A DNA stretch of 64,000 nt from an uncultured Alphaproteobacteria bacterium (GCA_902563305.1 CACEWP010000003.1:35951-99950), one strand, 5' to 3'. Positions 1,309 through 58,707 are shown, counted from the first letter of the stretch. Notes: generated by a model not told the origin, from the sequence alone. Numbers and translations are program-made.

Positions 1309-2349
1309 ATGGAATATAAAAAACTAGGAAATACAGATCTTGACGTCAGTCTAATTTGTTTGGGAACAATGACATGGGGAGAGCAAAACTCTGAAGAAGA
1401 GGGGTTTGAACAAATGGATCTTGCACTATCCGAGGGTGTAAATTTTTTTGATACAGCTGAACTATATTCTGTACCTCCAAGAAAAGAAACTTGGGGTATA
1501 ACTGAAAAAATCATAGGAAACTGGCTAAAAGCTCGAAAATGTAGAGACAAAGTAATTATCGCTACGAAAGTTGTTGGAAGGTCTGGAATGAAATGGTTTA
1601 GACATAAAGAAACTAGGCTTAATAAAGAGCAAATAAATCAGGCTATAGAAGGTAGTTTGAAAAGACTTAAGACAGATTACATTGATTTATATCAATTACA
1701 TTGGCCAGATAGAAAAGCTAATTTTTTTGGTAAACTAGGTTATAATTTTGAAGAGGAAGATGATTTTATTGAATTAAAATATCAATTAGAAGTGCTCTCA
1801 GAGAATATCAAAAAAGGAAAAATAAGATATATCGGTCTTTCTAATGAGACACCGTGGGGTTTGATGAAGTTTCTTTCATTATCAGAGCAATTCAACCTTC
1901 CAAGGGTTGTATCCGTACAGAATCCCTATTCATTATTAAATCGAAGTTATGAAGTTGGAATGGCAGAAATTTCAGTAAGAGAAAAATGTGGTCTATTAGC
2001 CTACTCTCCTTTAGCATTTGGAATGTTAACTGGAAAATACGATAATGGTGCAAAACCTGATGGAGCCAGGTTGACCTTATATTCAAATATGTATACTAGG
2101 TATACAAAACCTAAAGGACTAAAATATTCTGAGAGATTTAATGATCTTGCAAGGCAACATAATCTTAAGCCATCAGAAATGGCTCTTGGATATGTAAATT
2201 CAAAGGAATTTCTAACGAGCAACATAATTGGGGCTACTAATTTAGATCAACTTAAAGAAAATATAAATTCTTTTAAAATCAAGTTATCAGATGAGATAAT
2301 AACTGAAATTGAAAGTATACATGACGAGAATCCCTACCCCTGTCCGTAA
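1309..2349 (+). CDS. NADP(H)-dependent aldo/keto reductase (Tas-like)
   Basis: 346 aa. MEYKKLGNTDLDVSLICLGTMTWGEQNSEEE...GVNFFDTAELY and YIDLYQLHWPD are typical AKR signatures. Confidence 0.9.
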   Translation: MEYKKLGNTDLDVSLICLGTMTWGEQNSEEEGFEQMDLALSEGVNFFDTAELYSVPPRKETWGITEKIIGNWLKARKCRDKVIIATKVVGRSGMKWFRHKETRLNKEQINQAIEGSLKRLKTDYIDLYQLHWPDRKANFFGKLGYNFEEEDDFIELKYQLEVLSENIKKGKIRYIGLSNETPWGLMKFLSLSEQFNLPRVVSVQNPYSLLNRSYEVGMAEISVREKCGLLAYSPLAFGMLTGKYDNGAKPDGARLTLYSNMYTRYTKPKGLKYSERFNDLARQHNLKPSEMALGYVNSKEFLTSNIIGATNLDQLKENINSFKIKLSDEIITEIESIHDENPYPCP

Positions 2350-2350
2350 T

Positions 2351-3190
2351 TTATTTTTTTTGGATTATAAAACTTGTGATAATTATTACTAAGATTCCAA
2401 GTAAATTGGTTAAATTAATTTGTTCATTAAAAAATAAAAATCCAAAAATTGCTGAGAAAATTATTCTTGTATAACTTAAAATAACTACATCTTTACTCTC
2501 AGAATTTTTATATGATTCAGTATTGAAATATTGACCTAATAGTGCAGCCAATGTAATAAGTAAATAATCTAATAATAAAAAACTCCACTCTATTGAGATT
2601 TTATTTTTAAATATTACTAAAAAAATAATAGATGAAATTACTGAGTGATAAAAAAGTATTTTTGAGGTTTCTTCTCTCTTACTGAGATAAGATATCGATA
2701 TTATTCCTCCAGAAACACATATTGACGAAAATAAAGCCATATAAAGACCTTTTTGACTATCTATCTGATCGGGACTTGTGATTAGCATTATTCCTAAGAA
2801 ACCAGAAAAAATCAAAAAAAAGGTTTTCAGATTCAATTTCTCCGAAAAAAAGAATGATGAAGCTAAACAAGTAAAAAAAACTTTGGTAAATCCAATGGTA
2901 CTCGCTTGTGCTAATGTTAAATAAAGCAAAGATTTATACCCAAAATACATAGCAGAAACACCAAAAAGACATCTAAAAAAATGGACTTGTAGATTTTGTG
3001 TTGGCAGAAAAGTGGAAATTCTTTTTTTGCTACACAAAATAAAAAATAATAGAATCAGTGAACCAAAAAAAGATCTGAAGAAAACTATATTTTCAATACT
3101 ATGATCATCTAATGATTTTTTGATCATCAAGCCAAGTAAAGCAAAGAAAAAACAACTAATTATTTGATAATACGGTTGAAGTCTTATCAT
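2351..3190 (-). CDS. DMT superfamily (EamA-like) transporter
   Basis: 279 aa with about 10 hydrophobic helices, a tandem paralog of the upstream gene. The start is uncertain: it overlaps the upstream gene by 35 nt, and an alternative Met sits at 3127. Confidence 0.8.
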   Translation of the reverse strand: MIRLQPYYQIISCFFFALLGLMIKKSLDDHSIENIVFFRSFFGSLILLFFILCSKKRISTFLPTQNLQVHFFRCLFGVSAMYFGYKSLLYLTLAQASTIGFTKVFFTCLASSFFFSEKLNLKTFFLIFSGFLGIMLITSPDQIDSQKGLYMALFSSICVSGGIISISYLSKREETSKILFYHSVISSIIFLVIFKNKISIEWSFLLLDYLLITLAALLGQYFNTESYKNSESKDVVILSYTRIIFSAIFGFLFFNEQINLTNLLGILVIIITSFIIQKK

Positions 3191-4028
3191 TTTTTTTTAT
3201 ATTCAATGCGGTTAAATTTGAACAGATTATCAGCCCTACCCCACCAATCATAGTAATATGGTCTATTCTTTCATTAAAAAAAATAAGACCTAAGATTGTT
3301 GTGAAGATTAATTTTGAAAAATCAAAGGACATTAGATTGGTAAGTTTGGATAAACTTAATGCTTTAGTCCAACAAAAATTTCCAATTGTTGCAATCACTG
3401 CTATTAAAATCAATAGCAGGAAGGCTTTATAATCCTGAGGTGAAGTCCAAAAATGAAGAGAAGGTAGAAACGTTATAGGCGTCATTAATAAAACCATACT
3501 GAACATCAGTGTGATTACAGATTCTGTTTCTGATATTTTCTTAACTAATAATGCTGTAATTGCGTGAGTTATAGCAGCAATTAAAGCTAGAACCACCCCA
3601 AGTTTTATTTGAAGATCGGGTCTTATGATCACTATTGTTAAGATAAATCCTAAAACAATCATAAAATTATTAAATTTTGTTGTTTTTTCTTTGAAAAAAA
3701 TTACTCCACCAAGATATACGAATAATGGAGTGCTAAAAGTAACAGCAATTGCCTGAGAAAGAGGAATCATTGAATACGAACAAAATAGAAGTATCATGGT
3801 TAACCCTCCAAAGATTCCTCTAAGAACAAGAAGTTTAAAATTACTTTTTCTTTTTATTGATATTTTTGTTTTTAAAATAAACGGGAGTAGTAAAAAAATA
3901 CTTATGAAATTTCTAAAGAAAGCTTGTTCTACCGGATGAATAAATTCAGAATTAAATTTTATTATAGTAGCTAAAATCGAGAAAAGTAAACATGATGAAA
4001 TTAGGAGAAAGATTGGAAACATTTTCAA
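3156..4028 (-). CDS. DMT superfamily (EamA-like) transporter
   Basis: 290 aa polytopic membrane protein with the two-repeat EamA architecture. Confidence 0.8.
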   Translation of the reverse strand: MKMFPIFLLISSCLLFSILATIIKFNSEFIHPVEQAFFRNFISIFLLLPFILKTKISIKRKSNFKLLVLRGIFGGLTMILLFCSYSMIPLSQAIAVTFSTPLFVYLGGVIFFKEKTTKFNNFMIVLGFILTIVIIRPDLQIKLGVVLALIAAITHAITALLVKKISETESVITLMFSMVLLMTPITFLPSLHFWTSPQDYKAFLLLILIAVIATIGNFCWTKALSLSKLTNLMSFDFSKLIFTTILGLIFFNERIDHITMIGGVGLIICSNLTALNIKKNDKTSTVLSNN

Positions 4029-6967: not shown

Positions 6968-8341
6968 TTGTTAGAATTTATTATGAAAAACATTACTGAT
7001 CAATTAGATTTTGATTTTAGTAGACCAATTGATTTACAAAGAAATATAGAATTAGATATTATAAATAAATTTATTGGAAGTATAGAAAATTTGGACAACA
7101 GTAAATTATTTATTAAACATCTGAGGCTACTAATCCTTGAATTATATTTTTGTTGGGCTGAATCTGATTTACAATTTTTGTCCGTTTCAATGTCAAAAAG
7201 AGGTTATAATTCTAGATCGAGATACAACCCAAATAATATTTCATCTTATTTAATTAGAACGATAAATTTTTTAAAAAAAAGAAACCTCATTGAACTTTAT
7301 CCAGGTTTTTATGATTCACGATCAAAAAGAAGCAGATTGACAAGAATTAAACCCTCTTATACTTTAAAAAACCATTTTAAAAAAATTAAATTTTTATATA
7401 GCCATAAAATTAATCACAGAAAAAAAGAGTTTTTATTAATATCTAAGAATGGCGGTTTAATTGAGTATGATGATAGTTATGAAACTCAGGAAAAAAAGGT
7501 TGTTATTGAGAATTATAATAGCTTAATTTCAAAAACTTTATTTGATATTCCAAATATCGAAGATAGTTATCTGATTAGAGGAGATAACAGAAAAATTGCA
7601 ATTTCACGTTTTATTTCTTGCTCTTTCTTAATCGATTTAGACAAATTTCCATCTGGGACTTTCGCGGGGTGTTGGTGGAATAAGCTAGATCTAAGTTTAT
7701 TCTTTAAGATAAAAAATAAATTGACTATAAATAATAAAAAAACAAATTATTTAGATTTAACCCAGTTTTTCAGCCATTTTTTGACGCTAGTGTCTAGCTC
7801 AAACGTAAAGATAGAATCGCAAAGAGAATCTAAATATCTGAATCATAATCAAATTTGTTACTTAATTATAAAAGGAAGTCGATCTAAAAGTCAGGAAAGT
7901 TTTTATAGATCAGTACTAAGTGAAAAAAAGAAATTATCTCTAGATGGTCTAACAAAGAAACAGATTTTAGATTCAATTTACAATAAAATTAATAATGTTA
8001 ATATTCTTAAAAGTTTGATGTTTAATGGAAAGGATATTGGTTGGGATTCAATAATATCACGAGTTTTTTATGATTTAGTGAGTAAGATAAATAGCGTTAA
8101 TATCCCAGTTTTTTTAGTTAGAGATAAAATATATTTTCCAGAGGAAAAGCAAGATAAAGTTTTAGAAAATTTAGAAGAAATTTTATTTAAAGAGTTTCAT
8201 CTAAGTTCAATCAAAATGAAATGTGAAAAAGCTTCGGACTTTGACTTTGAAAAAAAAACTTTTTTTGGTAAATTACTTAAATCAAAAAATGATTTCTCAA
8301 AAAGATATTTAGATAATAAGAATTATTTTGGTATAAGTTAA
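6968..8341 (+). CDS. Hypothetical protein (457 aa; probable ATG start at 6983)
   Basis: Long uninterrupted ORF, Lys/Asn-rich, with no family I can name confidently. The track start is TTG at 6968; ATG at 6983 (MKNITDQ) is more likely. Confidence 0.7.
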   Translation: MLEFIMKNITDQLDFDFSRPIDLQRNIELDIINKFIGSIENLDNSKLFIKHLRLLILELYFCWAESDLQFLSVSMSKRGYNSRSRYNPNNISSYLIRTINFLKKRNLIELYPGFYDSRSKRSRLTRIKPSYTLKNHFKKIKFLYSHKINHRKKEFLLISKNGGLIEYDDSYETQEKKVVIENYNSLISKTLFDIPNIEDSYLIRGDNRKIAISRFISCSFLIDLDKFPSGTFAGCWWNKLDLSLFFKIKNKLTINNKKTNYLDLTQFFSHFLTLVSSSNVKIESQRESKYLNHNQICYLIIKGSRSKSQESFYRSVLSEKKKLSLDGLTKKQILDSIYNKINNVNILKSLMFNGKDIGWDSIISRVFYDLVSKINSVNIPVFLVRDKIYFPEEKQDKVLENLEEILFKEFHLSSIKMKCEKASDFDFEKKTFFGKLLKSKNDFSKRYLDNKNYFGIS

Positions 8342-28397: not shown

Positions 28398-31300
28398 TTG
28401 ATTAATTTGATGAGAATGAATAAAAAAGTTAAATCAGGTCTATATGATCCTAAGAATGAAAAAGATTCGTGTGGAATTGGATTTGTTGCGAATATCTATG
28501 ACATACCATCCAGAACTATTGTGGAAAATGGGTTAAAAATACTTAGCAATTTAACTCACAGAGGAGCAGTTAGTGCAGATCCAAAAGCTGGAGACGGTGT
28601 TGGATTGTTGACTCAGATTCCACATCAATTTTTTCAAAAAGAATTATCAAAATACGATATCATTCTTCCCAGACCCGACGACTATGCTATAGGAATGCTC
28701 TTTTTACCAAGAGATGAAGAGGAAAAAGCGCATTGTATTAAGACAATAGATAAGCATTTAAATAATTTAAAACTTGAAAATCTGTATGTTAGAGATGTTC
28801 CTAGAAATGTTTCAGTTTTAGGTGACTCAATTAAAGGAAATGAACCATCTATTATACAAATATTTATAAAACAAAGATTTCAAGCAAGTAAAATTAATGA
28901 ATTTGAACAAAGACTTTTTATTGCTAGAAGAAGAATTGAAATAGAACTTAAATCTTTTGACTTTTATATTTCCTCTTTATCAAGCAAAACTTTAATTTAT
29001 AAAGGCATGATTATGTCTGATAGTCTCAAAGAATATTACGATGATCTTAAAGATGAAATGTTTATTTCGTCAATAGCTATTGTTCATCAAAGATTTTCAA
29101 CGAATACATTTCCCAGCTGGGAGTTAGCACAACCTTTCAGATTCTTGTGTCATAACGGCGAAATCAATACTTTAAGAGGAAATGCAAATTGGATGAACGC
29201 GAGAGCATGTGTATCAAATTCAGAGATTTTTCTAAAAGAATTCCAAAATCTTAATCCTTTGATTTTTGATGGCTTATCAGATTCAGCAGCTTTCGACAAT
29301 GCTTTAGAGTATTTGATGATGGGTGGATATGATATTGAGCATGCCATGATGCTTTTAATACCTGAGGCTTGGGAAAAAAATGAACAGAACCTTTTAATGA
29401 AAGATTATTACGAATATTATTCAAATTATATTGAACCATGGGACGGTCCAGCAGCAATGTGTTTTTCAAATGGTAAGAAGATTGGTGCAATTTTAGATAG
29501 GAATGGTTTAAGACCTTCAAGATATATTCAAACCGAAGACGGTATGATAATGCTTTCTTCTGAAATGGGAGTATTAGATATAGATCCAAAAAAAGTTGTA
29601 AAAAGATGGCGACTAGAACCAGGAAAGATATTTTTAATAGATCTTATGGAAAAAAGAGTTATCACAAATGATGAAATAAAACTCAAATTAGCAAAGAAAT
29701 TTGACTATAGAAAATCTTTAGACAGAAATCAGATTTTCTTGAATGAATTAAAAACCAAAAACAATGTTAAAGAAATTAATCAAGATGAGTTGGTTAAATT
29801 TCAAATTGCTTATGGTTATAATAAAGAGGACATAAATTTTTTTATTGAACCAATAGTCAAATTAGGTGTTGAGCCTATAGGATCGATGGGAACCGATACG
29901 CCAATCTCCCTCCTATCTGATCAATCAAAACTTTTATTTTCTTATTTTAAACAATGCTTTGCACAGGTTACGAACCCCCCAATTGATCCAATCAGAGAAG
30001 AGCTGGTGATGTCATTGGATATGACATTGGGAGAAAAACCCAATATCTTTGACACACCAGAGGAAAATATGAAATCCAGACTGGAAATCAGTCAGCCAAT
30101 TCTTACTAACAGTGAAACTCAAATAATTAAAGATCTTGAAAAGTTAACTAGAGGCAAAGTCAGAGCAGCAACAATAGATATTCTTTTCAAAAATTCTAAT
30201 AATTCAGATGAACTTAAAGACGGATTAGAAAGGATTTGCTTTGAGGCGAAATCTTTAATATCCGACGGGTTTAACGTATTAATTTTGTCAGATAGGAATA
30301 TTTCAAAAGTAAATGCTCCTATACCTTCGTTATTAGCAGTATCAGCTGTGCATCATTACTTGATTGAGCAGGGGTTGAGAATGAAAACAAGTTTAATTGT
30401 AGAAACTGGCGAGGCAAGAGAATTGCATCATTTTGCTGTTTTAGCTGGGTACGGAGCTGAAGCAATTAATCCTTACGTGGTATTCGAAACAATTTCAAGT
30501 CTAGTTCAAGAGAAAGATTATAAAATTTCAGAAAATAATTTTATCAAGGCTTCAGGTAAAGCCATCCAAAAAATTATGTCAAAAATGGGTATTTCAACTC
30601 TTAAGTCATATTGCGGTGCCCAGATATTTGATGCAATTGGAATATCTGAAGATGTGATAAATCAATATTTCCCTGGAACAGCTTCGCTTATTGGAGGATT
30701 AACTCTTAAACAAATTCAAGAAGAGACCATATCAAGATATTCAAAATGTTTTGTCTCTGAAGATAACAATCAATCACTCGATGAAGGTGGAGAATTTGCA
30801 TTCAGAATAAAAGGTGAAAAACATTCTTGGTCACCATCCAGCATAACAAATCTGCAAAAGGCAGTAAGAATTAATTCCAAAGAACACTTTAATAAGTTTT
30901 CAGAAAAAATTAATAATCATAATAGATCTATGTATACTATTAGAAGCCTTTTTGAATTCAATAAAACAAAAAAAATTCCTGTAGAAAAAGTTGAACCAGC
31001 TTCAGAGATTGTAAAAAGATTTTCAACTGGAGCAATGTCCTACGGCTCAATATCCAGAGAAGCACATACAACTCTTGCTCTTGCAATGAATAGAATAGGT
31101 GGTAAGTCAAATACTGGTGAAGGTGGAGAAGAGCCTGAGAGATTTATAAAATTAAAAAACGGTGATTCTATGAAAAGTGCTATAAAACAGGTCGCTTCAG
31201 GAAGATTTGGTGTAACAACTGAATATTTAATAAATGCTAAAGATATTCAAATAAAAATTAGTCAAGGAGCAAAACCTGGGGAAGGTGGACAGCTTCCTGG

Positions 31301-32975
31301 ACATAAAGTAGATGATAAAATTGCAAGTGTAAGACATTCAACACCTGGTGTAGGATTGATATCTCCGCCGCCTCATCATGATATTTACTCAATTGAAGAT
31401 CTTGCACAGTTAATATTCGATTTGAAGAATGTTAACCCAGATGCAAGAATAAGTGTGAAATTAGTATCAGAATTTGGTGTAGGAGTCGTAGCAGCAGGAG
31501 TAACCAAGTGTAAAGCAGATCATATAACTATAGCTGGATACGATGGAGGTACTGGAGCGTCCCCATTGACTTCAATTAAAAATGCAGGAACTCCATGGGA
31601 ACTTGGACTTGCAGAAACCCATCAAACTTTAGTTATGAACAAACTTAGAAGTAGAATATCATTACAAGTGGATGGAGGATTAAAAACTGGAAGAGATGTT
31701 ATAATTGGCGCTTTGTTGGGTGCAGATGAATTTGGCTTTTCTACTGCTCCATTAGTATCAGTTGGATGTATAATGATGAGAAAATGCCATCTTAATACTT
31801 GTCCAGTAGGAATTGCTACTCAAAATGAAATCTTGAGAAAAAAATTTAAGGGAACACCTGAGAACGTTATAAATTATTTCTTTATGGTTGCTGAAGAGGT
31901 AAGAGAAATTATGGCTCAATTAGGCATAAGAAAATTTCAGGAATTAATCGGAAAATCAGAACTATTAGAGAAAAATAAAGCAATATCGCATTGGAAAGCA
32001 AAGAATATAGATTTATCTAAAATACTATTCAAACCTAAAAATCAAAACCTAAAAGATGTTTTTAATTCCTCGTCTCAAGATCATGCATTGAGCTATGTCC
32101 TAGATAAAGAGGTTATAAAGAAAGTTTTACCTGTACTTGAGAGGAAAATTTCGACCATAGATATATTTAAAACTATCAAAAATACAGATAGGAGTTTTGG
32201 TGCAATGTTATCCGGAGATATTGCTCGAAGATTTGGTCATAAAGGTTTAAGGGAAGATTCAATAGTAATTAATCTTGAAGGAACTGCTGGCCAAAGTTTT
32301 GGTACTTTTCTGTCTGCTGGTATAACTTTATCTTTGTCTGGAGAGGCAAATGATTATGTTGGAAAAGGTTTATCAGGGGGAAAAATAATCATCAAACCAT
32401 TTAGGGATGCCAAATATAAATCAGACGAAAATATAATAGTTGGTAACACTGTCTTATATGGCGCTATCTCAGGACAATGTTTTTTCTCAGGAGTTGCTGG
32501 AGAAAGATTTGGGGTTAGAAACTCTGGAGCAATTGCTGTTGTTGAAGGTACAGGTGATCATTGTTGTGAATATATGACCGGTGGAGTTGTTATGGTTCTT
32601 GGTAAGACAGGAGTTAATTTTGGCGCTGGTATGAGCGGAGGAATATCATACGTCTATCAAAATAAAGATGAGTTTAAGAAAAAATGTAATTTATCTATGA
32701 TTAATATCTTGAGAGTAAAAAAAACCAAGCATATTTTTCCCGAAAAACTTTTTGATAAATATAATTATCTTTTTAACGATGAATTGCGAATTAAAGAATT
32801 GTTAAAAAGACATCTAAACTTTACTGGCTCACTAGTCGCAAAAAGAATTTTAGAAAATTTTGATGAAGAAATTAATAATTTTGTTAAGATTCTACCAATA
32901 GATTTTGAAAATGTTTTATCAAAGAGGATAGAGAAAGAAAAAAATTTAAAGGTTGTAAATTTATGGCAAAAGTAA
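28398..32975 (+). CDS. gltB: Glutamate synthase (NADPH) large subunit
   Basis: About 1520 aa. It has the Ntn-amidotransferase Cys in DSCGIGFVA, the FMN/Fe-S central domain and the GXGXG C-terminal domain. The likely ATG start is at 28410 or 28416 rather than TTG at 28398. Confidence 0.97.
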
Positions 32976-34411
32976 CTGGATTTCTTGAACATGATAGAGC
33001 TGATAATGAATCATTAGCACCCAAGAAAAGACTTAAAAATTTTGAAGAATTCGTTTTGCCTTTTCCAGATAAAACGTTAAATGAGCAAGCTTCGAGATGT
33101 ATGGACTGTGGAATTCCTTATTGTCATGATTCATGTCCAATAAATAATATTATACCAGAGTGGAATAATTTAGTTTATGAAAGAGACTGGAAAGTTGCTC
33201 TGGACGTTCTTCATTCCACTAATAACTTTCCTGAATTTACTAGTAGGATTTGCCCTGCTCCATGCGAAGCGGCTTGTACTTTAAATATTGATGATAGTCC
33301 GGTAACAATTAAAAGCATCGAAAGATCTATTATAGATAAAGCATACAAAAAGGGTTGGTTGTTACCACAAATTAATAATAAAAAAACTAATAAAAGAGTA
33401 GTTGTTATTGGTTCAGGCCCTGCTGGTTTGGCATGTTCGCAGCAGTTAGCCAGAGCCGGACACGATGTTACACTGTACGAAAAAAATGATCGAATTGGTG
33501 GATTACTAAGGTATGGAATACCAAATTTTAAGATGGAAAAACATCTAATTGACAAGAGAATTGAACAAATGAGTAAAGAAGGTGTTAGATTTAAATGTAA
33601 TACAAAAATAGGTGAAGATGTATCATTTAAAGAAATATTAAATGATTTCGATGCAGTTGTTTTAGCATGTGGTTCTGAACAACCAAGAGATTTAGATATT
33701 CCAGGAAGAGATCTAAAAGGTATTCACTTTGCTATGGATTTCTTAACACTGCAGAATAAGATATGTGAAGGGGATAATATTAAATTAGAAAACGAGTTTA
33801 ATGCAAGAGATAAAAACGTGGTTGTAATTGGAGGTGGAGACACAGGGTCTGACTGTATTGGAACTTCAAATCGTCAAGGTGCAAGTTCGATTACACAACT
33901 AGAGATTTTAGACAAACCGCCAGTAAAAGAGGATAAAATGTTAACATGGCCTAACTGGCCGCTCAAATTAAGAACTTCATCTTCACATGAGGAAGGAGCA
34001 AATAGGAATTGGAGCGTATCAACAAAACTTTTTAAAGGCGATGGAAATAAAGTAAAAAGCTTAACATTAAAAAAAATTGAATGGGAAAAAAATGCTGAAG
34101 GTAAAATGCAAATTAAAGATAGTTCTGATGAAAACTCAGAGATGACAATTAAAGCAGATCTAGTTTTATTAGCTATGGGCTTTGTTCACCCAGTAAAAGA
34201 TAGATTGATACAAGATTCTGGTATTGAGCTAGATTCGAGAGGTAACGTCAAAGCTAATGATATAGATTATAAAACTAATATTAAGAAAGTCTTTGTCTCT
34301 GGTGACATGAGAAGAGGTCAATCACTAGTTGTTTGGGCAATAAGAGAGGGCAGACAGGTAGCCCACAATGTTGATAAATTTTTGATGGGAAGTACAAAAC
34401 TTCCTTTGTAA
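32963..34411 (+). CDS. gltD: Glutamate synthase small subunit
   Basis: 482 aa with [39 protein letters not shown] and [11 protein letters not shown]. It overlaps gltB by 13 nt. Confidence 0.96.
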
Positions 34412-54665: not shown

Positions 54666-54861
54666 ATGCTTATTTTAATAACAAGTAAAAGAATAAACTA
54701 GATTTTTTTCAATATTCATAATACGAAGCATTGGAAATAATGACTATTCAAAGTAAAAAAATTATATCGATAGTCTATAATTTTGTATGTTATTAATTAT
54801 TGATAAGAATAATAAAACTTATGAGATTGAGTGCTAATTAAAGAAGTGGCAAATATTTTTT

Positions 54862-54929
54862 TGATACCCCTAGTCCAACTTGAACGGACAAGAAACGAAG
54901 TTCAATTGATTTTGAATTAGTTGCGTTGC
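54862..54929 (-). pseudogene. Decayed copy of the 3' ~68 nt of tRNA-Leu(CAA)
   Basis: The plus-strand text tgatacccctagtccaacttgaacggacaagaaacgaagttcaattgattttgaattagttgcgttg aligns to 58621-58688 of the intact tRNA-Leu at roughly 83% identity in the same orientation. The T arm still folds, but the anticodon stem is broken and the 5' acceptor and D arm are absent. Confidence 0.7.
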
Positions 54930-55031
54930 TGTATAAGTCATTGATTTAAAAACAGATAAATTTTACTACCACACTTTTTTTTCAAAATCTGTGATGATAC
55001 CCTTATACACGTTAAAGCATTACTTAAAATA

Positions 55032-55108
55032 GTGGTTGTTGCTCAGTTGGTTTAAACGCAGGTTTGTGGTGCCGGATGTTGGGAGTTCAAATCCACTCAG
55101 CCAACCCA
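55032..55108 (+). pseudogene. tRNA-His(GTG)-like sequence, probably degenerate
   Basis: It has the D-loop GCTCAGTTGG, the anticodon loop TTGTGGT, the T-loop GTTCAAATC and a 3' CCA. My hand fold leaves mismatches in the acceptor (G1-A72), D stem (2), anticodon stem (1) and T stem (2). Confidence 0.35.
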
Positions 55109-55130
55109 TTCAACTAAATTGATAAAATTT

Positions 55131-55940
55131 TTACTGACAATTTTCTATATCTACTTTTGTGTCTAAAAATTCATCTCCATTATAATTATTTTTAACACCT
55201 TTTATTGTAGAAGCATCTTCGAAATCAAAGCCAGAACTAATTCTTATGTATTTATCATCAATACATTTTTTATGAGATGGATCAAATGCTACCCAACCTA
55301 GATTATTTATAAAAATTTCAACCCAAGCATGAGTGGTATTTTCACCTGAAACTGTATCTTCTAACAAAAAACCATTAATATATCTGGCTGGGAGTTGATT
55401 AAACCTTGCTGCGCTAATAAGAATATGAGCAAAATCCTGACAGACACCTTTTTTCTGCATCAAAGCATCCTTTGAACTAGTATATGTTGTTGTTGACCCA
55501 CTAACGTATTTAATAGAATTTGAAACTATTAAGTTAAGCGTATGGGCAAATTCTATTTGGTTTTTATTATTTTTTTTTGCATTTTCTGAAATTTTCTCAA
55601 TATTTTTACATGGTTTTGTTAAATCTGTTTCTCTAAGAAAACAAAGCGGATTAACCTTTTCTCTCAAACCTTTTACTACACCAGATAAATCTTTTGTTTT
55701 TAATATTCCTTTAGAAGTAATTTTAAGTTGACCATGAAAATTATTAATAAAAATATTTTGTATTCTATGTCCTAAGGCATCAGTGTGTGATTCTAATATT
55801 TTTCCATTATTTGAAAATGTTTCCCATTTTATAATTTCCTGATTTTCACAGACCGAGGGATATAGTTTTAAACATTGAATAAGCCTTGGCACTGTTAAAT
55901 TATATTTATAAGTTGTAGAGTGAGTAATTTTAATTTTCAT
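55131..55940 (-). CDS. Transglutaminase-like cysteine protease/ligase (Bact_transglu_N + transglutaminase core)
   Basis: 269 aa with MKIKITHSTTYKYNLTV...LKLYP, the catalytic-Cys context KGVCQDFAH, and HAWVE...FDPS. Confidence 0.9.
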   Translation of the reverse strand: MKIKITHSTTYKYNLTVPRLIQCLKLYPSVCENQEIIKWETFSNNGKILESHTDALGHRIQNIFINNFHGQLKITSKGILKTKDLSGVVKGLREKVNPLCFLRETDLTKPCKNIEKISENAKKNNKNQIEFAHTLNLIVSNSIKYVSGSTTTYTSSKDALMQKKGVCQDFAHILISAARFNQLPARYINGFLLEDTVSGENTTHAWVEIFINNLGWVAFDPSHKKCIDDKYIRISSGFDFEDASTIKGVKNNYNGDEFLDTKVDIENCQ

Positions 55941-56896
55941 GTTTCTGATCCAAAAAAGTATTTTTGCTCAAATTTTTTATAAATAAAATTTATTTCTTCA
56001 ATAAAGGATTTTAAAAATTCATGCAAACCAATTTCTGTAATTTTATTAGCATTTAGATTTTTTATTCTTTTATACATAAGTCGCATTTTTTTATTTGAAG
56101 AAGAGGTTTGTTTATAAAATTTTGATAACCTTCCTAAATGATGATTTATTTTTTCTATTGAAAAAATTAAAGATCTTGGGCAAGTCATATTCATAATTAA
56201 AAAATCTATAATTTTAGTGTATGTAATTTCTTGTCCTCCATAAGCCCATTTAAATGCTCTGAATGATGAAATTGATCTTAACATTAAACTCCATTGAAAA
56301 TTGTCAATATCACTTCCGACATAGTTTATACTTGGAAGTAAAATAAAATATTTAACGTTAATAATTCTTGCAGTAAAATCTGCTCTTTCAAAATAAGTTC
56401 CTAATATTAAAAAATCATAACCATCATTAATTAGCTGGGTGTTAAGTATTGTGCCTCTAATTAAATTTACTTGTTTTTTTATCCATTCAATAATTTCAGG
56501 CAATTCTTTTAAGATATTCTTTGTATCTTTTAAATTCTTATCAAGTTCATGATAAGAGGAATTTATTGCATTCCAAACCTCTAAAGTAACAGCAGTTCTG
56601 ACCATTCTTATATTTTCCCTTGCTGTCTTTATACAGTTTTTAACTGAAGAAAAGTTTTCTGGGTCAAAAAGAAGAAAGAAAATAATTTTCTCTTTAGAAA
56701 TTGTTTTATATTTTTTTAGGTATTCATTTTTAATTCCCGAAGTTTCTAGAATTGATTCCCATTCATTTGTATAACCTCTTTCCGTGTTAGGGATCAAAGA
56801 AATTCTGTATCCAACCTCTAAAAGTCTAGCTAAAGAATCGGCTCGTTCTATATATCTTGCTGACCAAAATAAATTTTCTGCAGTTCTACTTAACAT
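55937..56896 (-). CDS. Alpha-E domain protein (DUF403)
   Basis: 319 aa. The N-terminal MLSRTAENLFWSARYIERADSLARLLEV is the hallmark alpha-E opening. It overlaps the downstream gene by 4 nt. Confidence 0.9.
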   Translation of the reverse strand: MLSRTAENLFWSARYIERADSLARLLEVGYRISLIPNTERGYTNEWESILETSGIKNEYLKKYKTISKEKIIFFLLFDPENFSSVKNCIKTARENIRMVRTAVTLEVWNAINSSYHELDKNLKDTKNILKELPEIIEWIKKQVNLIRGTILNTQLINDGYDFLILGTYFERADFTARIINVKYFILLPSINYVGSDIDNFQWSLMLRSISSFRAFKWAYGGQEITYTKIIDFLIMNMTCPRSLIFSIEKINHHLGRLSKFYKQTSSSNKKMRLMYKRIKNLNANKITEIGLHEFLKSFIEEINFIYKKFEQKYFFGSET

Positions 56897-56901
56897 ATTA
56901 A

Positions 56902-58308
56902 CTATTCATTGAGTATCCATGTATCCTTAACTCCTCCACCTTGAGACGAATTAACCACCAACGAACCCTGATTTAAAGCAACCCTTGTTAATCCACCATC
57001 AACTAATTTTGTTTTATTGGCTCCAACCAAACAAAATGGTCTAAGATCAACGTGTCTTGGAGATAATTTTTTTTTATCAAAGATTGGTACTGAGGACAAT
57101 TCAAGTATTGGTTGTGCTATATAGTTTGATGGATTTAAAAGGATTTTTTTTCGAAAAATTTCTATTTCTTTTTTTGATGATTTACTTCCAATTAATAAAC
57201 CATAACCTCCAGAGCCATGGACTTCTTTAACAACTAATTTATTTAGATTTTTAAGAACATATTTTTTTGCATCTTCTTCACAGCATCGCCAGGTTTTTAC
57301 ATTTTCTAATATTGGCTCTTCTCCTAGGTAAAATTTAATTATTTCAGGTATGTAAGAATAAATAGCTTTATCGTCAGCGATACCTGAACCTGGAGCGGAA
57401 CAAATATTTACATTACCAGACTTATATGAATCAAATAAGCCAGGAATTCCAATAAGTGAGGAACTATCAAAAGTAATTGGATCAATAAATTTATCATCAA
57501 TTCTTCTATAAATTATATCAACTTTTTCTGGTCCCCTAGTGGTTTTCATATAGGTTATAGATTCGTCAACGAAAAGATCATTTCCTTGGACCAATTCAAC
57601 CCCCATAAGGTCAGCAAGAAAGCTATGCTCATAATATGCGCTATTTAAAGAGCCAGGGGTAAGTATTACAACTTTTGGTTCTTTATTGCATTTTTTTGGG
57701 GCTAGACTTTTTAGAACTTCTAACAAATAATTTGGATAGTTTTCTACAGTTTCGATTTTTAATTTTTCAAATAATTCGGGAAACATTCTCATCATTATTT
57801 CTCTATTTTCAATCATATATGAAACTCCAGACGGAGTTCGACAATTATCCTCTAGAACTTTAAAAGTTTTTTCGTTAATTCGCACTATATCAGATCCAAT
57901 AATTGGACTGTAAATTCTTTTAGGAACCTTAAAACCTATCATTTTTATTTCATATGCAGGGTTTTTATAAATTAAATTTTCAGGTATTAATTTTGCTTTT
58001 ATAATTTCACCAGAATTATAGATATCATTCAGAAAGGCATTAACGGCTAATGCTCTTTGGATAACTCCTTTTTTAATTTTTTTCCATTCTGTTGAAGAGA
58101 TTATTCTTGGAAACATATCAAATGGAATTAGACGCTCAGTAGAATCAAAGTTATTATATACAGAAAATGTAATACCTATCTTTTTAAAAAGATTTTCAGC
58201 TTCATTTTTTTTTTTAACAATTACATTTTCAGGCAAAGATTTAGCCCAATCATATATTTGATTATAAAATTTTCTTACTTTAGAGTTTTTGTAAACTTCG
58301 TTATACAT
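56902..58308 (-). CDS. Circularly permuted type-2 ATP-grasp protein (DUF404/DUF407)
   Basis: 468 aa. This is the conserved first gene of the ATP-grasp / alpha-E / transglutaminase triad described by comparative genomics (Iyer et al. 2009). Size and gene context match. Confidence 0.85.
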   Translation of the reverse strand: MYNEVYKNSKVRKFYNQIYDWAKSLPENVIVKKKNEAENLFKKIGITFSVYNNFDSTERLIPFDMFPRIISSTEWKKIKKGVIQRALAVNAFLNDIYNSGEIIKAKLIPENLIYKNPAYEIKMIGFKVPKRIYSPIIGSDIVRINEKTFKVLEDNCRTPSGVSYMIENREIMMRMFPELFEKLKIETVENYPNYLLEVLKSLAPKKCNKEPKVVILTPGSLNSAYYEHSFLADLMGVELVQGNDLFVDESITYMKTTRGPEKVDIIYRRIDDKFIDPITFDSSSLIGIPGLFDSYKSGNVNICSAPGSGIADDKAIYSYIPEIIKFYLGEEPILENVKTWRCCEEDAKKYVLKNLNKLVVKEVHGSGGYGLLIGSKSSKKEIEIFRKKILLNPSNYIAQPILELSSVPIFDKKKLSPRHVDLRPFCLVGANKTKLVDGGLTRVALNQGSLVVNSSQGGGVKDTWILNE

Positions 58309-58349
58309 CTTTCTTCACTTTTAATCGGAGTGGAAAGAGACAAACGGAT

Positions 58350-58395
58350 GCGTTCCTTCGGTTTCAAACCTACTTCCGACCACAATGGTTGAACG
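58350..58395 (-). promoter_or_regulatory. Candidate glutamine riboswitch aptamer (glnA RNA motif-like)
   Basis: The minus strand reads CGUUC-AACCAUUGUGGU-CGGAAGUAGG-UUUGAAA-CCGAAGGAACGC. It has P1 CGUUC/GAACG, two mini-hairpins, and the conserved CGGAAGUAGG and CCGAAGGAACGC blocks as I recall them for Rfam glnA RNA. It sits 41 nt upstream of the ATG at 58308. Confidence 0.7.
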
Positions 58396-58620
58396 TTTAT
58401 TAAAGATTATAACTAATCAATTTCTAAAGCAAGAGTTATTTGGTTTGTGGTAACGAAGGACGGGTGACAAATTCTCTCAATTAATAATAACAATAAATCT
58501 TTTTTACTGAGTTAATTTGTAAAAAACAAGGTTCACAATGTAAATGTCTATAACAATAATAAATCTTATTGAATATAATTTTTAATAAATTCTTAAACTT
58601 CTACTCGCATTGATTTTAGA

Positions 58621-58707
58621 TGGTACCCCTAGTCCGACTCGAACGGACATGAACCGAAGTTCAACGGATTTTGAATCCGTCGCGTCTACCAATTCCGCCA
58701 TAGGGGC
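58621..58707 (-). tRNA. tRNA-Leu (anticodon CAA)
   Basis: The reverse complement is GCCCCTATGGCGGAATTGGTAGACGCGACGGATTCAAAATCCGTTGAACTTCGGTTCATGTCCGTTCGAGTCGGACTAGGGGTACCA. It folds with the anticodon arm ACGGA-TTCAAAA-TCCGT and a long variable arm GAAC-TTCG-GTTC. The T arm is GTCCG-TTCGAGT-CGGAC and CCA is encoded. Confidence 0.95.

Follow-up and report, generated by a model that had tools for sequence, protein, structure and literature searches.

A glnA-type glutamine riboswitch in the leader of an Anbu-type operon of a SAR11-type genome, with a predicted glutamine-OFF expression platform

The glnA RNA family (RF01739) became known through cyanobacterial sequences and marine metagenomes (PMC2864571), and the genes associated with it in published work encode PII, GS, GOGAT, ammonium transporters, PMT1479 and gifB. 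Among its published members (Weinberg 2010, Ames & Breaker 2011, Ren 2015), the downstream genes do not include an operon of ATP-grasp, Alpha-E and transglutaminase genes. The two glutamine riboswitches that have been characterised experimentally are both ON switches (PMC6212724, PMC6698751).

Such a set of genes is known from the Anbu operon, in which a homologue of the ancestral proteasome beta-subunit is combined with transglutaminase, ATP-grasp and Alpha-E proteins, and which has been proposed to be a peptide synthesis or modification system (PMC3235984, PMC5666114, citing Iyer 2009). In P. putida, PP_2686-2688 are upregulated 11-37-fold under nitrogen limitation (PMC7801951) and PP_2685-2687 6.6-11.1-fold (PMC3325844), and PP_2685 and PP_2688 are more highly expressed on nitrate than on ammonium, with log2 differences of 4.4 and 4.0 (PMC8050072). 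The PP_2685-2688 operon has been attributed to NtrB/NtrC control (PMC7801951, PMC8050072, PMC3325844), and PP_2688 is a CP_ATPgrasp_2 protein. The B. cenocepacia genes I35_5080-83, a cluster of transglutaminase-domain proteins and possibly a counterpart of this operon, are NtrC/sigma54-dependent (PMC5491218). In marine metagenomes, the abundance of the three domains of the operon covaries with that of domains for urea metabolism (PMC3597751). SAR11 bacteria lack GlnB, GlnD, GlnK and NtrBC (PMC3870248).

Here we describe a locus at which the glnA RNA and an Anbu-type operon occur together. It lies on a 64,000-nt stretch of DNA from an uncultured alphaproteobacterium (CACEWP010000003.1:35951-99950), hereafter the window.

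The aptamer and the operon that follows it

An initial annotation of the window had proposed a glnA RNA, the glutamine riboswitch, in the leader of the operon. The 46-nt element lies exactly at 58395..58350 of the minus strand (CGUUCAACCAUUGUGGUCGGAAGUAGGUUUGAAACCGAAGGAACGC). When the whole 64-kb window was scanned with 4,227 Rfam families, three matches were obtained, two tRNAs and one RF01739 element (glutamine-I riboswitch, glnA leader) at 58397..58347 (-). The cmscan alignment spans the complete model (positions 1-53 of 53), all of its pairs are canonical, and its score of 58.3 bits (E = 2.8e-10) far exceeds the gathering score of 35, which confirms the proposed identity. The aptamer has a GC content of 47% against 28.4% for the window.

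The alignment contains the three-helix junction of P1 (58395-58391/58355-58351), P2 (58389-58386/58382-58379) and P3 (58370-58368/58362-58360), with the joining strands CGGAAGUA and GAAGGAACG; the core CGGAAGUA occupies 58378-58371 and the GAAG joining strand 58359-58356. P1 and P2 are the helices drawn initially, but P3, drawn as GG/CC, is GGU/ACC (3-4 bp) in the model. RNAalifold on the leaders of the operon returned the same P1, P2 and P3 with 11 pairs. The window matches the consensus at all positions that RF01739 treats as conserved. These include the terminal P1 pair, here C58395:G58351, which contacts glutamine in characterised aptamers, and the C directly 3' of P1, here C58350, which forms the long-range pair G23-C60 in Synechococcus numbering (PMC6698751, PMC6212724). 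In its junction, core, 5'-leader location and marine host, the element resembles the published members of the family; the aptamer by itself is an ordinary RF01739 member and as such already known. Judged from its sequence, it probably binds L-glutamine, and we consider it almost certain that the element functions as a glutamine aptamer and acts on the operon in cis.

The gap between the aptamer and the ATG of the first gene, at 58308, is 38 nt, and Pfam matches agree with the ATP-grasp, Alpha-E and transglutaminase genes stated initially. Gene 1 (56902..58308, -; 468 aa) encodes a circularly permuted ATP-grasp amide ligase (PF14403 CP_ATPgrasp_2, E = 3.2e-153), very similar to the uncharacterised 'putative glutathionylspermidine synthase' of PDB 3n6x (E = 1.7e-166). 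Gene 2 (55937..56896, -; 319 aa) encodes an Alpha-E protein (PF04168, E = 9.1e-80), for which a sequence search of the PDB returned no relative with a solved structure. Gene 3 (55131..55940, -; 269 aa) encodes a transglutaminase-like cysteine peptidase/amidase (PF01841 and PF08379) related to PDB 3isr (E = 8.2e-14). Its motifs GVCQDF (residue 165), THAWVE (203) and AFDPS (218) presumably supply the Cys-His-Asp triad. The three genes are co-oriented, with 5 nt between genes 1 and 2 and a 4-nt overlap of genes 2 and 3.

The operon had been called uncharacterised. It is not entirely so, being of the Anbu type (Iyer 2009, Valas & Bourne 2008) without Anbu. As in the described operons (Valas & Bourne 2008, Iyer 2009, Fuchs 2017), the three non-protease genes are adjacent and co-oriented, whereas the 465-nt spacer after gene 3 (55130..54666) contains no ORF and no Anbu gene. 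Other marine streamlined lineages share this difference, and the Anbu gene is missing at loci L001, L009, L013, L016, L017, L021 and L022. At the orthologous locus of Tabrizicola (L025), all four genes are present, one of them encoding a proteasome-family PF00227 protein.

Orthologues were collected with the ATP-grasp protein as the query, using one genome per GTDB species and keeping the best 80 loci. Among these, the closest ATP-grasp relatives are 88-98% identical and belong to genomes from single cells and to MAGs that carry the labels Pelagibacteraceae, Rickettsiales or 'uncultured Alphaproteobacteria'; the window therefore derives from a SAR11-type genome. The neighbours of the operon are polysaccharide and methyltransferase genes. 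The window also carries gltB/gltD (GOGAT) at 28398-34411, 25 kb from the riboswitch. Though GOGAT is a published associate of the glnA RNA, the window-wide Rfam scan found no aptamer of their own at gltBD.

Conservation of the leader and its expression platform

In 11 of the 11 Pelagibacterales loci among the best 80, the aptamer is located just upstream of the ATP-grasp gene. The same arrangement is found in L022, a marine alphaproteobacterial MAG with 69% ATP-grasp identity, where the aptamer scores 61.8 bits. No aptamer was detected upstream of the Rfam-scanned gammaproteobacterial, Rhodospirillaceae-like, Rhodobiaceae and Rhodobacterales orthologues, or, with a strict core regular expression, upstream of the gene at the remaining loci of the best 80. 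A metagenome scan for the 3' core of the aptamer, 30-60 free nucleotides and an M-[YF]-N-E-V start yielded a further 28 genuine leaders on contigs, and all 16 leaders that were rescanned pass RF01739 with 55-61 bits. The resulting 37 distinct leaders come from Pelagibacterales genomes, L022 and metagenome contigs. In all of them, ~40-50 nt separate the aptamer from the ATG of the orthologous ATP-grasp gene downstream, and the aptamer core and GAACG-C are invariant with divergent flanks. They represent at least two alphaproteobacterial lineages and, being related, roughly 2-3 independent lineages, not 37 independent tests.

Of the two signatures that the initial annotation had proposed to look for in orthologous leaders, conservation is clear across the 11 Pelagibacterales genomes, L022 and the 28 contigs, and covariation is minimal, since the stems within the operon leaders are nearly invariant. 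RNAalifold recorded two both-sided stem changes, seen only after the leader of the L013 glnA gene was added. This near lack of covariation, together with the sequence-based assignment of the ligand, would also fit a non-functional relic, a chance resemblance, or an aptamer for a ligand other than glutamine. We nevertheless regard these readings as very improbable. The E-value of 2.8e-10 in the window argues against them, as do the consensus identities of the glutamine-contacting C:G pair and of the C 3' of P1, and a core that does not vary among the 37 distinct leaders, even though their flanks have diverged and the host ATP-grasp proteins are only 69% identical.

A promoter-like block (58406..58432, -) precedes the aptamer and consists of TTGCTT (58432-58427), a 15-nt spacer and TATAAT (58411-58406). 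The CTTGmTTTA...TATAAT block is kept in 13 of 13 genome-derived leaders, including that of the distant L022, and in every one of them it ends 8-14 nt before P1. Transcription thus probably starts ~2-8 nt before P1, as the position of the block suggests, and this position fits the SAR11 riboswitch transcripts that begin at P1 or at most 15 nt away (PMC5069720). The block in the window and its equivalents in L001-L011 and L022 have a perfect TATAAT and a TTG-containing -35 element at a spacing of only ~14-15 nt, and a consensus promoter scan with spacers of 16-18 nt did not report the block in the window. The conserved CTTGmTTTA could instead, or in addition, be a protein-binding site.

Downstream of the aptamer, constrained folds and their pair lists delimit a pyrimidine-rich switching sequence, AUCCGUUUGUCUCUUUCCACUCCGAUUA (58322..58349, -). 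In these folds, its segment CCACUCCGAUUA (58333-58322) is able to pair with the aptamer core at 58382-58369, and its segment CUCUUUCCACU (58339-58329) with the start region at 58319-58306, AUG included. The start region (58306..58319, -) is a purine-rich initiation region composed of AGUGAAGAAAG and the AUG, with a weak Shine-Dalgarno (SD) sequence and the start codon at 58308-58306. The platforms of the leaders form two main groups and a few intermediates, a SAR11-like group 1 with GCAUCCnUCUGUCUCUUUCCACUCCGAU...GUGAAAGAG-AUG and an L022-like group 2 with ...GUCUCUACCUCUAU..AUAGAGGCA-AUG. Both lineages have a pyrimidine-rich segment 3' of the aptamer with two possible partners. Within the coding region, codons 3-5 (58302-58296, AACGAAG, in the start AUGUAYAACGAAG) contain an AACG that mimics the 3' strand of P1, and in the minimum free energy (MFE) folds of L005 and L006 the P1 5' strand pairs with this coding-start AACG. 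The mimicry may be a coincidence arising from the conserved M-Y-N-E-V N-terminus.

The comparison set consisted of 105 distinct glnA platforms, taken from viral contigs among the matches listed. Their design is compact, like that postulated for gifB (PMC6212724). The first 30 nt after the aptamer have a pyrimidine fraction of 0.71±0.04 in the 37 operon leaders and 0.42±0.07 in the viral-contig platforms. The tail following P1 is CAUCC in most operon leaders and CACC/CACU in most viral-contig platforms, and the tail-to-downstream duplex amounts to -1.9 kcal/mol in the former versus -4.9 in the latter. A strong SD (GGAG/GAGG/AGGA) is present in 8 of the 37 operon leaders, within 15 nt before the AUG, and in 99 of the 105 viral-contig platforms, within 45 nt and at a median of 16 nt from the aptamer. 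The distance from the aptamer end to the start codon is 40-50 nt (median 42) in the operon leaders, against a median of 26 nt in the viral-contig platforms. From these differences in tail, SD, distance and pyrimidine content, the platform anatomy of the operon leaders is demonstrably distinct from that of the other glnA platforms.

The Synechocystis gifB leader (Klahn 2018) and the compact viral platforms share the aptamer class with the window and, probably, control at the level of translation. In the gifB type, the tail that directly follows P1 is paired to a strong SD at a distance of ~16 nt, and expression is switched ON by glutamine (PMC6212724). The window platform differs in belonging to the type of 40-50 nt and 71% pyrimidine, in which the SD is weak and does not pair with the tail, and in its predicted OFF polarity. 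The gifB-type P1-tail/SD mechanism was rejected for the window leader, which lacks tail-SD complementarity and a strong SD. At least 120 viral contigs (L081-L200, IMG/VR) carry glnA-type aptamers, most of them in the compact form CACC/CACU...GGAG(G)GUG ~26 nt before the start codon, and L094, L100, L113, L118, L141, L156 and L157 carry tandem glnA-type aptamers. The operon itself was found on none of the viral contigs with glnA aptamers among the matches listed.

Folding and predicted switch polarity

We propose that the aptamer would sense L-glutamine inside the cell, the usual measure of nitrogen sufficiency, and that the platform, 40-50 nt long and rich in pyrimidines, would act as a switching sequence able to pair with either of two partners but not with both at once. 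In the absence of glutamine, the switching sequence would pair with the purine-rich core GUCGGAAGUAGG and P3 and unfold the binding pocket, leaving the weak SD and the AUG open, and the operon would be translated. With glutamine, the aptamer would be locked and the freed switching sequence would pair with the SD/AUG region, blocking translation. Glutamine-OFF translational switching of this kind would lead to expression of the operon under nitrogen limitation.

In the window, the state in which 58333-58322 pairs with the aptamer core (state B) has a predicted energy of -19.6 kcal/mol, and the state in which 58339-58329 pairs with the start region next to the aptamer secondary structure (state A) has -17.5 kcal/mol; according to the pair lists, nucleotides 58329-58333 are used in both. 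Among the folded leaders, the anti-aptamer state ranges from -15 to -24 kcal/mol versus -8 to -16 kcal/mol for the aptamer plus sequestor secondary structure, the latter being -13 to -16 kcal/mol in all of them but L011. In the alignment, 79.5% of the cells of the sequestor helix are paired, versus 40-51% when the helix is slid. Four of its pairs show both-sided changes, and 15 of 500 shuffles attain its covariation score. RNAalifold on the platform alone gave no consensus structure. The platform-to-core duplex energy has a mean z of -0.64 against dinucleotide shuffles, so that this complementarity is largely compositional and by itself no evidence.

The predicted effect of locking the aptamer on the accessibility of the start region is local. 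Over the wide interval of -14..+4, the effect is negligible (0.06 vs 0.01), because regions of opposite sign are averaged. With the aptamer locked, the accessibility loss of 0.2-0.45 is confined to -8..-1 in group 1 and to -10..-2 in group 2. Over -9..-2, the loss averages 0.284, compared with 0.070±0.019 for shuffled platforms (maximum 0.120 in 60 rounds), and is positive in 35 of the 37 leaders, a significance that is overstated since the interval was chosen after the profile had been seen and the leaders are related. The leader of the window itself shows a loss of 0.41, against 0.13±0.14 in the shuffles, a value attained by 1 of 60. No accessibility effect is predicted for some leaders, namely L006, L009, L022, L212 and L219. 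L022 is the single member of group 2 among the leaders folded under both constraints; its local SD hairpin is present in either state, with a difference of only about one G-C pair.

We regard the full model of a glutamine-I riboswitch with translational switching and OFF polarity as probable, with considerable room for doubt. The OFF polarity is suggested by secondary-structure thermodynamics together with regulatory analogy, and the translational mechanism is the one to which the predicted folds point. The same aptamer might instead act as a glutamine-ON switch as in Synechocystis gifB, with the start occluded in the absence of the ligand and the operon made when nitrogen is plentiful, for example if the operon were a glutamine-consuming ligase system. 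Both characterised glutamine riboswitches are of this polarity, the GAUG at the start codon of the window offers a possible partner for the tail CAUC, and several MFE folds contain a weak helix (5 bp, 2 of them G-U) between the AUG region and the freed 5' strand of P1. However, a G precedes the AUG in only about half of the leaders, the 5-bp closing helix is worth less than 1 kcal/mol, and the tail-to-downstream duplex is the weak one given above, in comparison with gifB-like platforms. Locking of the aptamer also lowers the predicted SD accessibility, and it is a shortage of nitrogen, not its sufficiency, that induces the homologous operons (PMC7801951, PMC5491218). We therefore consider the ON polarity unlikely, although it deserves to be kept in view.

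An intrinsic-terminator mechanism was rejected, as the leader strand contains no terminator-like site. Rho-coupled riboswitches are known in other bacteria. In the window, the bound state would expose a C/U-rich, G-poor tract, and Rho-dependent termination or RNase access might replace the sequestration of the SD. The platform is 71% pyrimidine and poor in G, and the missing intrinsic terminator also agrees with this possibility. On the other hand, a tract of only ~26 nt would make a short rut site, the predicted sequestor helix includes the AUG, and some of the sequestor pairing shows both-sided changes. We judge this alternative to be improbable; its polarity is the same as that of the preferred translational OFF switch, with which it could operate together.

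Mobility and nitrogen control of the operon

An intact tRNA-Leu(CAA) is encoded upstream of the promoter-like block (58621..58707, -; ARAGORN). A repeat search revealed that its 3' 65 nt (58621-58685, -) recur as a partial copy downstream of the operon (54862..54926, -; 85% identical). The two 65-nt copies, whose starts are 3,759 bp apart, bracket exactly the promoter, the riboswitch and the three-gene operon. No integrase is found inside the bracketed cassette. Such a bracketing repeat is, as read from the sequence, a signature of a tRNA-integrated island. tRNA-His-like remnants are found inside both ends of the cassette. One is a degenerate tRNA-His(GTG)-like sequence just past the transglutaminase gene (~55040-55116, +), uncalled by ARAGORN and Rfam, and the other is a 23-nt remnant upstream of the promoter (58442-58464).

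Related loci also show tRNA contexts. An intact tRNA-His (7204-7283, -) lies 26-29 nt after the operon in L001, L002 and L004, and an intact tRNA-His (3654-3730, +) precedes the operon in L013. In the marine gammaproteobacterial SAGs L016 (2125-9257) and L019 (2263-8532), the operon is located within an rRNA operon, between 16S-tRNA-Ile and tRNA-Ala-23S, and has the sigma54-type motif TGGTA[CT]-N5-TTGCA upstream; protein-coding genes in a 16S-23S spacer are unusual. Only 11 of the best 80 loci, taken from one genome per species, are of the Pelagibacterales type. Because of the tRNA repeats, the varied tRNA contexts and this small number of loci, the unit of promoter, riboswitch and operon may belong to the flexible genome as a small cassette that carries its own regulation.

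The nearest riboswitch-less orthologues among the best 80 loci carry near-consensus sigma54-type motifs at conserved positions. Four gammaproteobacterial loci have TGGTA[CT]-N5-TTGCA at -27/-28, two Rhodobiaceae loci have TGGCAT-N5-TTGCA at -118/-119, and the density of such motifs is 0.44 per kb upstream versus 0.06 per kb in the background. The marine alphaproteobacterial MAG L013 (TMED62) carries the operon in divergent orientation to glnB, a glutamine riboswitch and glnA. There, glnB(PII), an RF01739 aptamer of 43.8 bits and glnA lie on one strand (1643-3730). The glnA platform of L013 is ~100 nt long, with a CGGUAU...AUACCG hairpin immediately after P1 and a strong AGGAG SD, and is unlike both the gifB-type and the operon-type platforms.

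The control of the operon by nitrogen status, as put forward in the initial annotation, thus gains independent support by analogy from P. putida, from B. cenocepacia and from the sigma54-type promoters of riboswitch-less orthologues. The P. putida PP_2685-2688 operon is of the same type and would follow the same logic, being on when nitrogen is scarce. The simplest reading of this regulatory analogy is that the operon is part of a nitrogen-stress response across Proteobacteria, and that a glutamine-sensing RNA would have taken over the job of NtrC in SAR11-like genomes. Since SAR11 lacks PII and NtrBC, the riboswitch plausibly supplies NtrC-like logic; in a lineage without PII, GlnD and NtrBC, it would reproduce the NtrC/sigma54 control of the operon in other Proteobacteria. 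In P. putida and B. cenocepacia, a protein two-component cascade reads PII/glutamine, whereas direct sensing by RNA is predicted in the window, where the putative RNA sensor stands in place of the NtrC/sigma54 control of described Anbu operons.

A link of RF01739 to the ATP-grasp/Alpha-E/transglutaminase operon was not found in the searchable literature, and the part of the Weinberg 2010 supplements that was covered (200 of 438 files) does not mention the domains of the operon. Descriptions of the gene association, of the platform class and of the likely OFF polarity were likewise not found in the searchable literature. The broadest interpretation would be the first glutamine-OFF riboswitch, an RNA replacement for NtrC over an Anbu-type system where PII, NtrBC and sigma54 have been lost, in a cassette mobile between tRNA-linked sites. 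We offer it tentatively, as a reading that may well hold but that we stop short of calling probable.

If true, the Anbu-type amidoligase/peptidase system would be a core nitrogen-starvation function, and its substrate would be sought in nitrogen recycling, among protein or peptide tagging and turnover and among amide or polyamine conjugates. The function of this system has been open since 2008-2009; the riboswitch would tie its expression to glutamine and the search for its substrate to the nitrogen economy, and the glutamine link agrees with the NtrC control in Pseudomonas. If the switch is OFF, it would widen the repertoire of glutamine riboswitches and answer the question, raised by Klahn et al., of how glutamine acts on the non-cyanobacterial representatives (PMC6212724). 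For SAR11, the most abundant marine heterotroph, the riboswitch represents a concrete, testable element of an alternative mode of nitrogen sensing.
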